Assembly: GCA_963827655.1 (NCBI GenBank)
Contig: CAWHCF010000044.1
Coordinates: 160,001-224,000 of the forward strand
Source: an uncultured Acidobacteriota bacterium
GTDB taxonomy: Bacteria; Acidobacteriota; UBA6911
Direction of reading: 5' to 3'
Length of the DNA stretch: 64,000 bases
Shown here: piece after piece, positions 27,214 through 42,119 of the stretch
Numbering within the stretch: the first letter of the stretch is position 1
Layout: the number at the start of each line of letters is the position of its first letter
Notes under the pieces: model-generated
The model's input: the letters and a program-made list of their open reading frames with translations, nothing else
Databases searched by the model: none
What the model was told of the DNA's origin: nothing
Program-made: the position numbers and the translations under genes

Positions 27214-27392
27214 TCTCCTGGAAGTCGGGCCGAATATAACACAAGAGGACGAGGCTAAGAGCAACAACCTTTCTTGCTTGTCCTTGCATTACTGATCCGC
27301 CCCACTACGGCGGACAAGGCTCAAGCCAGTGATGGTCGCGTCAATCCTGCGCACCAAACTGACAAGGACTGGCTGACCGCAAGAAACTCTAT

Positions 27393-29345
27393 CTATCTGT
27401 GCTGAAAAGCTCCAATATCTGGTCTGGAGCCAGAGAAATACGCCGGGCGTCATACCAGGCAAGGGATCATAGGTTCTTCCGTCAATCGTAAATGGCCTGG
27501 AGAGATCGATGCCGGCATTTCGGGAACTGCTGTCGGAGGGTAGCAGGAAGTCAGGCATGGTAGCGTCATTCCATTGCTTCTGGGGCCACGCAAGAATATT
27601 ATTACTACCGAACCAGCCCCGGAGACCTACAAATTCCCCGCCTACCCAGTTGTAGTCAAAGACCTGAACGTCTCGTTTCTCGGTAAGCGTGGTTTCCGAG
27701 TTATACGCATAAGGAGTGGAAAGAATGTTATTCAGAATATACGTTCTCCGCATGCCATAACCGCGGTTGAAACCAGCCATCAAGAATGCGTTTCGCCCGC
27801 CGGCGATACTGTTGTGGTAAAAGTAGATTTCGGCGTTTGAATCAACATAGGAGTTCGACCAGGCATTAAAGAAGATGTGATCTCCAAAACCTGGAGGATT
27901 GTAGAATCGATTTCCATAAATATGCAGGCGCCGCTGCCCATCCTGCACGCTAAAAAGCCGCATGCTGTACTTGTTGTCGTAGATCATGTTCCCGTAGATG
28001 TCGGCGTTTGCGTCCGGATAGAGCTCAAATGCCTGAGCCGAATGGTTGTGGATCTCATTGTAGGCGATCTTTGTTCCGGACGTGTCATACCAGAGGCTGA
28101 TTCCGGTGATGGCGTCATAGATATGGTTTGCATAAATCAGGTTGTTGTTGGCGCGGTTCCAGACCCTGATATTGTGATCATCCTCGGCTGTACGCCCGAC
28201 TAGAAACTTATTCTCGTAATAGAGATGATACGTGATCCAGCCGGCATAGCTGTCCGCCGCGGCGCCGGGCCGGAAAGTACTGGAACGATTCATCTTCAAT
28301 TCATTACTGCGAATGTGATTGCCCGAGGCGCCACCGTAAAGATAGATCCTGGTGTTCCCATTGGTCAGATAGTTCTCTTCAATGATGTTGTTCGTAGCAG
28401 CCGGATCCCGATATCAAAACCGCGTTTCGGGCGGCGCGGATCCAAAAACCCTTCACATATGATGAAACTCTTGTCTGAAATGAGCACGCCTGCGCCTTCA
28501 GGGCGATCACTTTCCTTTCTAGGTCCAGGAGAAGATCTTAGGTTCTTTCCATTGGGATCGTCGCCATTCCGAAAACGAATGTAGGTAACGCCATCGCGGT
28601 AACCGAACAACGCTTCCATACCATCCCAGTACTTTATGTCAGGGGAGTCCGGATAGTTCACAATGGCGTTCGCCGGCGTGGCAAGCGCCTCGAAACCCGT
28701 GCCCCGAGTCCCCTCAACAACAATCCCGTTCATAGAGTCGGTGTTGATGCGCCAGATCGTCGTGTCGTCAACGGTCATGGCCCATGGTTCGTATCCGATG
28801 CTGGTGGTCTTATAAACTCCAGCGCCCACTTCCGGCGCCGGCACCCATCCGCTGACGGGATCGCCGCCATCAATGATGCTCAACCACTCTCCACTCGGCC
28901 CTCTTTCTCCCTGGAACGTGATCGGCTGGCCAGGCGAACCATTCACGTTGATTTCAACCCGTTCGCGGTAGGTACCGGCTCTAACAATTACCGTATCGCC
29001 GGGCGCGAGCGAGTTCGCCGCCCTCTGAATGGTACGCCAGGGTTGATCGGAGCTGCCGAAACTATCATCAGAACCGGCTGGAGAGACGTAATATACATTT
29101 CCGTCGGCACTTACCTGCAAGTTCAGGCTAGTCAGGAGAAACAGGGTGGTCACTACCATCGAGACAAGCAACCGAGTTTGACCACCAGTCACCAATCGCT
29201 TGAAGGCTTTGGACAGTCCGCGACGAACCCCCGGGAAGGACCGAAGTCCGGATCTGTGGTGATTTTGTTCGCGCGGGGTCTCGGAAAAGCTCGTTCGCGT
29301 TTCGGGAGAAGGCCCCTCAGTTGAGTAGGCCTCACGGGTTACCAT
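27393..29345 (-). CDS. Secreted beta-helix protein, paralog 3 (frameshifts near 28400 and 27440)
   Basis: Same architecture (YYVSPAGSDD..PWRTIQRAA..PGDTVIVRAGTY); the corrected C-terminus is PDIGAFQHR* at 27393. Confidence 0.82.
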
Positions 29346-38939: not shown

Positions 38940-39305
38940 ATGGGACCTTTTCAAAAACATGTTTTCGTCTGCACCAGCGGCGCCACCTGTCCCGTAGAGG
39001 GCAACTCCCAGAGCGTACATGCCCGGCTCAAGGAGCTGGTAAAAAATGCGGGCCTGAAAACAACCATCCGCGTCAATAACTCCGGGTGCATGGATCAGTG
39101 CGGGAACGGCCCCATGATCGTGGTTTATCCCGAAAACGTCTGGTACTGTCATGTGCGGGTCGAGGACGCCGATGCGATCTTCGAGGAACATCTGGTAGGG
39201 GGCCGGCCGGTCGAAAGATTGATATACCGTCCTCTGAAGCCAGGCGCCAACAAGATCTGCAAAGAAGAACCTCCGACCTCCGACAGTTCAAACCGGCAGC
39301 CTTGA
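38940..39305 (+). CDS. Thioredoxin-like [2Fe-2S] ferredoxin
   Basis: HVFVC...C...SGCMDQCGNGPMIVVYPENVWY...EEHLVGG.PVERL. Confidence 0.92.
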   Translation: MGPFQKHVFVCTSGATCPVEGNSQSVHARLKELVKNAGLKTTIRVNNSGCMDQCGNGPMIVVYPENVWYCHVRVEDADAIFEEHLVGGRPVERLIYRPLKPGANKICKEEPPTSDSSNRQP

Positions 39306-39449
39306 GGCTGCAACCAGACGAGATCTTCTTCGTGTCTTCGCGTCTTAGATCCTATGTAGGGCGGCAGCTCGCAGGGTCGAAAGAGCGGGCCGTTCTTGGT
39401 AAGCTCCTTTTGGGTTTAGTTGTCTAATCCAAAACAAAAAGGAGAAACT

Positions 39450-40605
39450 ATGACCAAGACGACCCGCAACCAACAGTATAGCGATATTCGACCGACATTG
39501 TTTATGGCATTTGAGCTAGGGATGTCGGAATGGAAACTGGGGTTCACGATTGGGCTGGGGCAGAAGGCGCGAAGGCGCACGGTAACAGCCGGCAACCTTG
39601 AAAAAGTACAGAGGGAGATCGTGGCCGCCAAGAAACGGTTCCAACTTCCGGAGACGGCCGAGGTGGTGAGCTGCTACGAAGCAGGGCGGGATGGGTTTTG
39701 GCTGCATCGATACTTGACGCAGTCTGGGATCGGGAACCTGGTGGTGGACTCAGCGAGCATTGAAGTGAACCGGAGAAAGCGGCGAGCTAAGACGGATCGC
39801 ATGGACGTGGAGAAGTTGCTGACCATGCTGATTCGGTATCAGTACGGAGAGCACAGGGTCTGGAGCGTGGTGCGAGTACCTTCGCCCGAAGAGGAAGATA
39901 ACCGGCAGTTGAATCGAGAGCTGCGCAGCCTGAAGAAGGAGAAGACGCGGACCACCAATCGCATCAAGGGACTACTGGCGAGCCAGGGGGTCAGGCTTGA
40001 GCCTGGGAAGGAGCTGTCGGACAAGAAACTGGACTCGATCAGGTTATGGGATGGCTCGCCATTGCAGCCGGGGTTAAAAGGCCGCCTGCAGCACGAGTGT
40101 GCGCATGTGGTGTTTTTGAAGCGACAGATCCTGTCGCTGGAGGGGGACCGCAGGCGCGAACTCAGAGAGGGAGAGAACCCGGACCTGGACCAGGTTCGCC
40201 AGCTTGCGTCTTTGCGCGGCATTGGTGTCAACGGCGGTTGGGTGCTGGTGCGAGAGTTCTTCGCCTGGAGGGAAGTTTAACAACCGGCGCGAAGTGGGGT
40301 CGCTGGCGGGCCTGACGCCGACCCCCTATCAGAGCGGGGAATCGAGGCGGGAGCAAGGGATTAGCAAAGCCGGCAACCGTCACGTCCGGGGGGTAATGAT
40401 TGAGCTGGCCTGGTCTTGGGTGCGCTTCCAGCCCAAGAGCAAGCTTACTCAGTGGTTCGAGGAGCGTTTCGGCGGTGCGGGCAAGCGCGTCCGTAGGGTT
40501 GGAATAGTGGCTGTGGCACGACGCCTGCTGATCGATATGTGGAAGTTCCTCGAGACCGGAGCTCTGCCCGAGGGCGCGCAACTGAAAAAAGTAGTAGTCG
40601 CTTAG
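39450..40605 (+). CDS. IS110 recombinase/transposase (frameshift near 40270)
   Basis: AFELG, CYEAG, RAKTDRMD (RuvC-like), GIG, AGLTPTPYQSG (catalytic Ser), GISKAGN, VAVARRL. Confidence 0.93.
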
Positions 40606-41000
40606 ACGGAGAGAAACCAGAACGTGAGAACGTTCGAGACCTAAACAGCCTATGAAACCTCAGGTGTTGTTTTCCTCTTGCGGCCATTGTGCTCCGGCCG
40701 GCCCCAGCGGCGTCAAGGCTAAACCCTTTGGGCGCGCTGTGCGCGGCCTTGACCCCGCGGGCCGACCGGAATTTTTGGCCGCTAAGAGGAAAACAACGGA
40801 GAGTAAACCAACTTCTCGGCATGGTGGGACTGCCCGAAAATACCACTGGTATCCGTTTTGGAACCGGTTCCTAGATGGGGCGTCCCGAAAGCGCTCGCAC
40901 ATTTTTCGCCACCGCGCGAATACAGGATTGGGTGTCCGATCACTACACGATCGGCACGGATAGAAGTTTCATTCGGGGTCTATCCCCGAATCAGACACCG
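40606..41000 (+). ncRNA. Predicted bridge/seek RNA of the IS110 element
   Basis: Target-binding loop 40826-40886 and donor-binding loop at about 40917-40975, with guide segments matching the element's flanks and ends. Transcript boundaries are inferred. Confidence 0.75.
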
Positions 41001-41102
41001 AGCCACCAGCTGCAGACGTAACCAAGGAGGTCAACCGAAGGAGCTTGACACCCAAGACTACATAGAAGTGGTATTTGTTCCGCAAGCAAGCTTGCGCCAG
41101 TC

Positions 41103-42119
41103 CTACGTTTGAATCCGAACCTTGCGCTTCGCCCTGGCATCCGCAGTTCTGGAGCCGATTTCCAAATGCGCTCGCCCCACCGACCGGAAGATGTTGGGAG
41201 GTTGCCGGGGAGCGCGAAAACGGACGCTGCAATCGGCGCGATCTGTATGATGGCAGTAGACCGCGCGTCCCGATGGCTCTTCGTACTTCGCAAGCACCAT
41301 CTCGGCCCACGGGAGCGTCAGAGCGACAACGACCTCTTCTTCTCCGAGACTCCCTTTCCACTCCCAGGGACTCTCCCACCGCTGTCCCCATGACGTCTCA
41401 GGCCGAAGCTGAAGATGTTTTTCCTTCCAGACCAGATGACCGAAACTCAAGCGATTCATTAGAAAATTCCCGACCAGATGCGGCTGGGCGATCAGTCCGG
41501 TGACGTAGGCCGCCAGGGGATCGCTTCCCTGCTCGAGAAACGAGCTGCAGTGAAACCAGACCCACTCGGCGGGATACCGCCTTCCCCAGGCGTGAATCTG
41601 CTGCCCGGTATCATTGTTGAGGATGAATGAATGATCGCGGATCTGGATCTTCCCCCCGATCGACATGAAGGGATGAGGTGTCAGCACTTTTGAACCAATC
41701 ATGCCCGTCTTGTAGAAAACCTCGGGCAAATAGTGCAGCGGATCAGTCACCGGTTCATAGACCAGGTCCCAGGTTACAGGCGTGCCATTGGCCTCGATCA
41801 TACCGGTCATGCGTCCTGATTGGAGGCTGCAGGGACCCATTTTCAACAGAAAAGGGTAGGGCTCCGCAAAGAACTGGTTCGCAGGGTATATCTGAGCCAC
41901 GGCCACATTCGCATCTCCTAAATCCGGAACATACGACGTAAACAAAACCTGGACGCTGATCTCTTCCCGGCGAGGCACCAGCAGCGAGTACTGAATCCAA
42001 AAGCCTGCTCCCGAGGTCAGCTGGTTCATGGTCGTAGACCAGGTCTCGAAATGAGAACGAGTATGGCCGTCCCAGCGCAGCCGTTTTAGCGGATCCAGTC
42101 GGGTGGCATCATCTTCCAT
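41103..42119 (-). CDS. Hypothetical protein, tocopherol-cyclase/AttH-like beta fold
   Basis: FETW..GFWIQYS, VTWDL, GQQIHAWGRRY..WVWFHC, YEEPSG..YCHHT. Confidence 0.55.
   Translation of the reverse strand: MEDDATRLDPLKRLRWDGHTRSHFETWSTTMNQLTSGAGFWIQYSLLVPRREEISVQVLFTSYVPDLGDANVAVAQIYPANQFFAEPYPFLLKMGPCSLQSGRMTGMIEANGTPVTWDLVYEPVTDPLHYLPEVFYKTGMIGSKVLTPHPFMSIGGKIQIRDHSFILNNDTGQQIHAWGRRYPAEWVWFHCSSFLEQGSDPLAAYVTGLIAQPHLVGNFLMNRLSFGHLVWKEKHLQLRPETSWGQRWESPWEWKGSLGEEEVVVALTLPWAEMVLAKYEEPSGRAVYCHHTDRADCSVRFRAPRQPPNIFRSVGRAHLEIGSRTADARAKRKVRIQT

Follow-up and report, generated by a model that had tools for sequence, protein, structure and literature searches.

The window analyzed here, a 64-kb stretch of DNA from an uncultured Acidobacteriota bacterium whose genome (G000) amounts to 8.18 Mb in 53 contigs (59% G+C, 90% complete), contains at positions 39349-41068 a copy of an IS110-family element, which we place in the IS1111 group on the features described for that group. 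The element consists of a recombinase gene, which is frameshifted in this copy, and a structured non-coding region on its 3' side (Table 1). We propose, with a probability of about 90%, that this 3' region is a genuine bridge/seekRNA of an IS1111-type element and that its guides spell out both the element's own ends and its insertion site. A preliminary description of the locus, the strings and coordinates of which all proved correct, had likewise read it as a natural RNA-guided IS110/IS1111 recombinase system, and this is supported by the covariation of guides and flanks, by the covariance of the RNA and by the matches of the recombinase.

An insertion sequence with an AG core in a host repeat

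The genome contains five copies of the element (the window copy and L002 to L005), which fall into two sublineages that are ~97% identical, A (window, L002) and B (L003, L004, L005). In the alignment of these copies homology ends at 41070 on the right and at ~39337-39345 on the left, and the element accordingly begins with ATCCTATGTAG directly after ..TTAG and finishes with ..CTACATAGA-AG, ends that fit the motifs of the family (AG/AT..TATG left, CATAGA/AG right). The left end is 101 nt long (39349-39449) and the right end 463 nt (40606-41068), and the 8-bp subterminal repeats are inset by three bases on the left and by one on the right. AG is present at both junctions of every full copy in G000 and in a second genome, G002, and unoccupied copies of the target repeat carry a single one, which identifies AG (CT on the other strand) as the crossover core, the dinucleotide put forward in the preliminary description.

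The target is a REP-like (repetitive extragenic palindromic) intergenic repeat, roughly (GA)TTCTTGGTGTTTCTTCGTGTCTTYGNGTCYTNGTGGTATTTGTTTCG, which lies in the window at 39320-39348 and 41067-41085. Its 17-nt core is present in ~739 copies in G000 at ≤2 mismatches, and the target sites of both sublineages are found within it. There are 11 perfect 14-nt sites of type A and 57 of type B in the genome, while a shuffled 2-Mb sample contained no 14-nt A or B site at ≤1 mismatch.

Target guides change together with the flanking DNA

The 5' target guide AAATACCACT (40838-47) is the exact reverse complement of the right flank AGTGGTATTT (41067-76). The window contains this 10-mer at no further place: its two occurrences are the guide itself and, in the opposite strand, the flank, compared with a mean of 0.05 occurrences in dinucleotide shuffles, none of 100 of which reached two. 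The 3' guide TCCTAG (40869-74) agrees with the left flank TCTTAG (39343-48) at five of six positions. By our own arithmetic this match, like the 6/8 match of the 5' donor guide described below, is by itself at chance level for a region of 460 nt, and both become significant only because of the comparative tests.

The most direct of these comparisons lies within G000 itself. Sublineage A carries the guides AAATACCACT (5') and TCCTAG (3'), and sublineage B carries AAGAAACACT and TCTTAG. Their target loops differ at 40840, 40841, 40843 and 40871, that is, at three bases of one guide and one base of the other, and additionally at 40856 in the hairpin loop. The right flank of B is AGTGTTTCTT in all three copies and is the exact complement of the B guide, just as AGTGGTATTT in the window is that of the A guide. 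The left flanks are TCTTAG (L003) and CTTTAG (L004) in B, and TCTTAG (window) and GCCTAG (L002) in A. The homologue in G002 behaves in the same manner, with the right flank CGATCAGC in 8/8 copies and a guide, GCTGATCG, that matches it; its left flanks read TTTCAG, as does the 3' guide, in five of nine cases, and the remaining four are one base off.

The comparison extends well beyond these two genomes. A protein search found the recombinase in 6 of 61 related genomes, G000 among them, and one scan of species-representative genomes gave 562 relatives, of which 80 were kept, from Acidobacteriota, Chloroflexota, Gemmatimonadota, Planctomycetota and others, with 53-63% identity. Element ends were set by conserved motifs that are independent of the guides (AG/AT..TATG left; CTTGAC..CATAGA/AG right), and identical pairs of guide and flank were counted once. 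Of 85 rows, 28 had no recognizable right-end motif within 450 nt or no complete guide, and 22 had no single left-end motif match or no AG in the guide window. On the right side, where the reverse complement of the 5' guide was compared and offsets of +/-1 were allowed equally for own and other flanks, the guides match 5.79 of the eight non-core bases of their own flank versus 3.20 for the flanks of other elements (53 unique pairs; 0/10,000 permutations as high, p≤1e-4), and matches at ≥7/8 positions are found in 26% of own pairs versus 0.6% of others. On the left side the figures are 4.89/6 versus 1.80 (55 unique pairs; 0/10,000 permutations as high, p≤1e-4), with ≥5/6 positions matching in 78% versus 2.3%, and this test bears out the assignment of TCCTAG as the left-flank guide. 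The loci compared are related, and the p-values of both permutation tests are therefore optimistic and overstate independence, a point that weakens the case; the two G000 sublineages and the G002 copies serve as independent checks on them. Variability in the RNA peaks in the columns of the target guides (1.91 and 1.67 of 2 bits), compared with 0.22 bits for AGAT and 0.09 bits for ATAGAAG. Guides that fail to covary with targets in homologues had been named beforehand as the finding that would speak against a bridge RNA; what is seen is covariation between the A and B sublineages, in the eight G002 copies, and across ~50 distinct elements from several phyla.

A conserved two-module RNA

A covariance model built from five sequences matches 82 of 87 sources at E≤0.001, in every case on the strand of the recombinase gene and directly 3' of it; the 87 sources, drawn from the window and 111 loci, exclude duplicates of the same place (L001, L006-L012, L018, L019, L021-L031, L053-L055 and L058). 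In G000 the model gives exactly five matches, one for each copy of the element. Among 75 distinct rows, 84.1% of cells are paired, compared with 72.0% after shuffling (0/500 as high) and 38-46% when the partners are slid by one to three columns. Since the alignment was fitted to the model's own structure it favors that structure, a bias that the slid-partner controls address. Both partners vary in 39 of the 46 pairs, and the many G-U pairs are consistent with an RNA fold on the + strand.

The target loop conforms to the preliminary proposal. Its outer stem (helices 1 and 2) is 91% and 83% paired with two-sided changes in 8/10 pairs, and the minimum-free-energy fold of 40810-41000 returns the proposed outer stem, internal loop and inner hairpin, at a z-score of -2.0, with 7/200 shuffles folding equally well; the covariation of helices 1 to 3 reproduces the same stem and hairpin. 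For the donor loop the two guide strands and the inner hairpin of the preliminary description stand, although the simple internal loop that it had drawn does not: the predicted donor module is multi-branched and consists of an outer stem, an extra hairpin A, the 5' guide strand, the inner hairpin, the 3' guide strand and an extra hairpin B.

Donor guides and handshake bases

The donor module carries ACAGGATT at 40922-29 on its 5' strand and, at 40960-66, ATAGAAG, which is identical to 41062-68. The latter, in the form (GG)ATAGAAG, reproduces the right end together with the core in almost every element, as the preliminary description had it for the window. The 5' strand had been described as a 6/8 match to the junction arm. 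Its two variable positions do track the left end (71/94 cells; 0/10,000 permutations as high, p≤1e-4), but the arm is imperfect and its mismatches are conserved, and a perfect complement of the left end, which we considered, is accordingly rejected.

In 45/49 unique rows the base that follows ATAGAAG is the one with which the right flank begins, while the next base agrees in only 4/48. On the target side, the 3' strand always runs on as AG-AT, and the left end itself opens with AT. Each 3' guide strand is followed by sequence shared with its opposite DNA partner, which is the handshake-guide arrangement described for IS621 (PMC11208158, sections 11-12), read here from the sequence of an element with a 3' RNA. 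Non-canonical pairs are likewise included among the natural guides of IS621 according to section 12 of the same paper.

Table 1. Features of the element and its RNA in the window
Feature	Position	Strand	Remarks
Insertion sequence	39349..41068	+	1720 bp including one AG core at right end; span common to the five G000 copies
Left target half-site TCTT + core AG	39343..39348	+	sits in REP-like repeat
Left subterminal inverted repeat CTATGTAG	39352..39359	+	reverse complement of 41058-41065
Recombinase, N-terminal part (probable RuvC-like domain, coiled coil)	39450..40280	+	stops at premature TAA; PF01548 28.1 bits, E 2e-6
Extra G, shifts reading frame	40275	+	window copy only; missing from L002-L005
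Recombinase, C-terminal part (Tnp domain, GL-P----SG serine motif)	40276..40605	+	other frame; PF02371 58.2 bits vs 21.3-bit cut-off
Imperfect palindrome, 135 nt	40666..40800	+	between recombinase stop codon and RNA; predicted fold
Bridge/seekRNA (proposed)	40821..41010	+	covariance-model match; R1 198.5 bits, E 2e-58; ~190 nt
Target loop outer stem, 5' strand GGGACTGCCC	40826..40835	+	pairs with 40877-40886
5' target guide AAATACCA + CT opposite core	40838..40847	+	pairs with + strand of right flank (predicted)
Target loop inner hairpin	40848..40865	+	predicted fold; helix 3, 71% paired
3' target guide TCCT, core AG, then AT (handshake)	40869..40876	+	AT = first two bases of left end
Target loop outer stem, 3' strand GGGGCGTCCC	40877..40886	+	pairs with 40826-40835
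Donor loop outer stem, 5' strand GCTCG	40893..40897	+	pairs with CGAGC 40999-41003
Donor-loop extra hairpin A	40905..40920	+	helix 5
5' donor guide TACAGGATT	40921..40929	+	imperfect complement of + strand core + left end (AGATCCTATG)
Donor loop inner hairpin	40932..40957	+	helices 6 and 7, 99% and 83% paired
3' donor guide ATAGA, core AG, then T (handshake)	40960..40967	+	ATAGAAG = 41062-68; T = first right-flank base
Donor-loop extra hairpin B	40971..40991	+	helix 8, two-sided changes in 8/8 pairs
Donor loop outer stem, 3' strand CGAGC	40999..41003	+	helix 4, 90% paired, two-sided changes in 5/5 pairs
Outward TTGACA, -35 half of putative circle-junction promoter	41045..41050	+	17 nt, then G + ATCCT
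Right subterminal inverted repeat CTACATAG	41058..41065	+	reverse complement of 39352-39359
Core AG + right target half-site TGGTATTT	41067..41076	+	exact complement of 5' target guide

The recombinase

The broken gene of the window copy is covered by two open reading frames, 39450-40280 and 40204-40605, and intact paralogues encode proteins of 394 residues (contig C37) and 385 residues (contig C10). The intact recombinase passes NCBIfam NF033542, 'IS110 family RNA-guided transposase' (173 vs 140 bits), in an alignment that begins at profile position 43; the PF01548 score of the window's N-terminal part is just below the 29-bit cut-off, in an alignment that starts at profile position 33 and leaves the first acidic motif outside. 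Among solved structures (PDB search) the best sequence match of the C-terminal domain is to ISCro4 (E 1.9e-8, residues 219-372), and the recombinase of IS621 is matched as well. A sequence search of the N-terminal 216 residues against PDB chains at E≤10 gave chance matches to seryl-tRNA ligase only, so that a fold search was needed to tie this domain to IS621. An AlphaFold model, computed from an alignment of 40 relatives (predicted local distance difference test, pLDDT, 82.6), matches the chains of the IS621 and ISCro4 synaptic complexes over ~365 columns (E 5e-15).

In the 40 family members G288, L289, P293 and S296 are invariant, as is G297 nearly so, and so are E78, D117 and D120; E23, at the end of strand 1, is conserved in ≥90% and is not D. 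From the position of the motifs we infer that E23, E78, D117 and D120 would form the catalytic tetrad, with glutamate as the first acid. It may be noted that the residue 23 motif FELG (in the protein of L003:1613-2767; ~39513-39515 in the window) stands where IS110 transposases usually have the first catalytic aspartate, and that the Pfam and NCBIfam profiles both leave their first 30-40 positions unaligned on this recombinase.

The gene being frameshifted, the window copy would be mobile only with recombinase supplied in trans by a paralogue; it shares its RNA sequence exactly with the intact copy on contig C37.

Signals and possible traces of expression

IS1111-type elements have a promoter that forms at the junction of the joined ends (PMC11187229, section 8). 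Here an outward-facing TTGACA lies 17-18 nt before the G of the core, so that joining of the ends would give TTGACA-N17-GAT(A/C)(A/C)T (GATCCT in the window), and such a promoter, TTGACN followed after 17-18 nt by GAT[AC][AC]T, would form at the joined ends of 44/46 unique elements. Contigs from three soil RNA libraries (two studies; three of four runs) cover 40553-41075 and end at the right end of the element, and one RNA-library contig runs across 40275 without the extra G. The stretches of the recombinase gene that are uncovered in these runs are uninformative, and one run (X18) consists of short pieces, partly with adaptor-like loose ends. The libraries also contain guide variants: X15 has A>C at 40838, and X16 and X17 join the A-type 5' guide with T at 40871, a combination that would fit the left and right flanks of the window copy without a mismatch, unlike the RNA of that copy.

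Variant copies and other features of the right end

Of the B-type copies, L003 and L004 lie ~1.45 kb apart in the same orientation (G000:C10:24129-25865 and 27319-29056). L005 (G000:C20, minus strand) is truncated at its 5' end and retains an intact B-type RNA and a normal right junction; its left flank, GCTCTTAG, is a normal left half of a B site that ends in the AG core and is fused to internal sequence equivalent to ~39598, which places the start of the deletion exactly at the crossover point. L002 (G000:C37), with an intact recombinase gene and A-type guides, has a normal left flank (a full repeat ending in GCCTAG) and a right flank, AGTGTTTGATCGG, that lacks the expected GGTATTT, as would result from an off-target insertion or from later deletion of the flank.

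The palindrome that separates gene and RNA in the window accounts for most of the fold z-score of -5.8 of the right end. Most homologues lack it, and their RNA begins 30-100 nt past the gene. The idea that the palindrome (40660-40805) is a separate mobile element is rejected for G000, as whole-genome BLAST matches lie solely within the five copies of the insertion sequence. Homologues in G007 and G021 carry unrelated palindromic inserts elsewhere in the right end, one ahead of the RNA (L013) and one past it (L014). A hairpin and T-run at 40878-40905, between the two RNA modules, was considered as a terminator and dropped, given its shuffle-level score and the missing T-run in the G007, G021 and G002 homologues; it could in principle give a short RNA with the target module only, like the 82-nt seekRNA of ISEc11. 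Some loci contain two RNA matches. In L065 these are on opposite strands ~630 bp apart, as expected of tail-to-tail elements, and in L035 and L036 the second match is upstream of the gene and belongs to a neighboring copy.

Discussion

Comparison with known bridge and seekRNA systems

The element is a new example, in a new host group, of the kind of bridge/seekRNA described in 2024, and not a new mechanism. PMC11208160 describes IS1111-type elements as carrying their RNA on the 3' side, with subterminal inverted repeats of 7-17 bp and ends of unequal length, the left short and the right long. In the element of the window these repeats measure 8 bp, the left end is likewise the short one, and the RNA lies 3' of the gene in the long right end. 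The abstract and section 9 of PMC11187229 give the order of the guides in this group as a top-strand match 5' of the bottom-strand match, and here the 5' guide is complementary to the + strand and the 3' guide identical to it. The closest likeness is to the seekRNAs of ISEc11, ISPa11 and ISKpn4 as Siddiquee et al. (2024; PMC11187229) describe them, with which the element shares the long non-coding region 3' of the recombinase gene, the subterminal inverted repeats, the order of the top- and bottom-strand matches and the GL-P----SG motif, which section 6 of that paper gives as G--P----SG. ISPa11 is also inserted in a REP sequence, and in that account the three elements, as here, have no apparent internal promoter and their transcription is ascribed to the circle junction. 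The differences are that recombinases of the present family have 385-394 residues, compared with 330-350 for IS1111-family proteins (section 6), that the presumed first RuvC acid is E (in FELG) and not D, that a 135-nt palindrome separates gene and RNA, and that those elements are backed by biochemistry where ours is known from its sequence.

With IS621 (Durrant et al., 2024; PMC11208160; Hiraizumi et al., 2024; PMC11208158; PDB 8wt6-8wt9) the element shares, on the published descriptions cited, the two-loop RNA with both strands read around a CT core, handshake bases after the 3' guides, non-canonical natural guide pairs and a REP target. The modelled recombinase matches that of IS621 over its full length (E 5e-15, template-modelling score 0.61 on the target's length) at a protein identity of ~20%. 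In contrast to IS621, the RNA is 3' rather than 5' of the gene, and its top- and bottom-strand matches come in the opposite order with respect to the gene. The present element also has longer subterminal repeats and a multi-branched donor loop with two extra hairpins, and only one of its donor-handshake bases covaries. The ISCro4 bridge recombinase (PDB 9t56) is the best sequence match among solved structures, over residues 219-372 only, and its fold also matches. ISPpu9 and ISPpu10 of Pseudomonas putida (IS1111 group; PMC12288879), compared by their description only, are likewise IS110-family elements inserted in REP sequences with a downstream small-RNA gene and several copies per genome, and differ in host phylum, target and RNA sequence.

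A hypothetical mechanism

By analogy with these systems we put forward a hypothetical mechanism for the element. As in IS621, ISEc11 and ISCro4, it would excise as a circle, in which the joined ends would form a promoter (TTGACA-N17-GATCCT) for a single transcript of recombinase gene and RNA. The RNA would then bridge the circle junction and the target inside a recombinase tetramer. In the target module the 5' strand would pair with the + strand of the core and right flank, and the 3' strand, which is identical to the left flank and core, with the - strand. In the donor module the 5' strand, which complements the beginning of the left end imperfectly, and the 3' strand, which is identical to the last bases of the right end and the core, would read the joined ends, and the one or two additional bases of each 3' guide strand, which match the opposite DNA partner, would give the handshake. 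The conserved serine (S296 in the intact paralogue) would cut at the core and the strands would be exchanged, with a site in the REP-like repeat as the target and AG (CT on the other strand) as the crossover dinucleotide. Such a system may be reprogrammable.

Alternative explanations

A structured 3' region could in principle have another role, in mRNA stability, in transcript processing or as a protein-binding site, in which case the protein alone would read the target and the matches to the flanks would be by-products. This would accommodate the facts that the guide RNA is known here from sequence alone, with transcript and ribonucleoprotein deduced from it, that the short matches (5/6 and 6/8) are at chance level by themselves, and that the flank of L002 fits its own guide poorly. 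Several observations count against a bridge RNA at this locus. The right flank of L002, AGTGTTTGAT, matches its A guide at only four of eight bases beyond the core; the 3' guide of the window copy disagrees with the adjoining left flank at one base; and in no element is the 5' donor arm fully complementary, one position being C opposite A in 34/47 elements. The full-length homologous locus L088 has no RNA match and L073 has only a partial one of 88 nt, two loci that may be decayed elements or assembly problems, and a model search with filters off found nothing credible in L088 or in three truncated loci. A scan of 39000-41500 with Rfam 15 gave no match at E≤1, the presence of a bridge-RNA family in Rfam not being established, and a promoter scan of 39300-41120 found no sigma-70-like promoter on the + strand within the element. 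The RNA-library contigs come without strand, ends or level, and DNA carry-over is possible, which makes them a weak hint of transcription only. Nevertheless, we regard another role for the region as very improbable: the guide columns vary more than any other part of the RNA, which is otherwise conserved, and change jointly with the flanks, the G-U pairs and double changes indicate an RNA fold on the + strand, and the recombinase has a fold like those of IS621 and ISCro4, which were solved together with their RNA. That the copies of flank sequence within the element arose at the level of DNA, by target capture or by nested insertions into the same repeat, rather than as selected guides, is suggested by the great abundance of the repeat (~739 copies) and by the further repeat copies that adjoin the elements. 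This we consider extremely improbable, as the guide halves are split, on opposite strands and in fixed register within a conserved stem-loop, and comprise only 4-10 nt of the repeat, and as the same layout is found in elements of other phyla that target unrelated sequences.

A bridge RNA encoded 3' of the gene thus remains our reading of the region, and a separate question concerns the gene itself, whose frameshift at 40275 might be an assembly or sequencing error, or be read through, leaving the window copy autonomous and active. The genome is a 53-contig assembly that is 90% complete, multi-copy elements are prone to consensus errors, and the RNA-library contig across 40275 lacks the extra base, although it may come from another copy or strain. 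On the other hand, the extra G lies outside any homopolymer run (GAA-G-TTT), and the window copy also differs from L002 at two neighboring bases, which indicates that the copies were resolved separately. We therefore think it unlikely that the window copy is autonomous and active.

Implications

For the annotation of G000 the findings account for a multi-copy element, its preference for a ~739-copy repeat, a frameshifted recombinase pseudogene and a conserved RNA of 190 nt that gene callers would miss. They also provide a natural example of retargeting, as changes at 3+1 guide bases separate two sublineages in one genome whose sites differ to match. Judging from these sequences, the four target-loop substitutions may have redirected the element from one site of the host repeat to another, in which case a natural retargeting event has been captured.

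The relatives of the element are distinguished by a recombinase of ~385 residues, longer than usual and with glutamate as its presumed first catalytic acid, by a four-branch donor module, a conserved rC opposite dA in the donor arm and a single-base covarying handshake. A tentative suggestion, to which we give somewhat less than even odds, is that the element belongs to a subfamily of IS1111-like bridge systems that is so far uncatalogued, extends over several phyla and comes mostly from soil; our search for papers joining bridge RNA, IS110 and Acidobacteri found none, and this is the sole basis on which the clade is possibly undescribed. Bridge/seekRNA recombinases are under development as programmable tools for DNA insertion, and natural diversity reveals which of their features are essential. 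The large family from uncultured soil bacteria to which the element belongs is one in which the rules for guide, flank, donor and handshake can be read by comparison. Should the handshake rule and the mismatch tolerance of the donor arm be undescribed for systems with a 3' RNA (IS1111-type), the family would provide a ready comparative data set and new scaffolds for the design of bridge recombinases.

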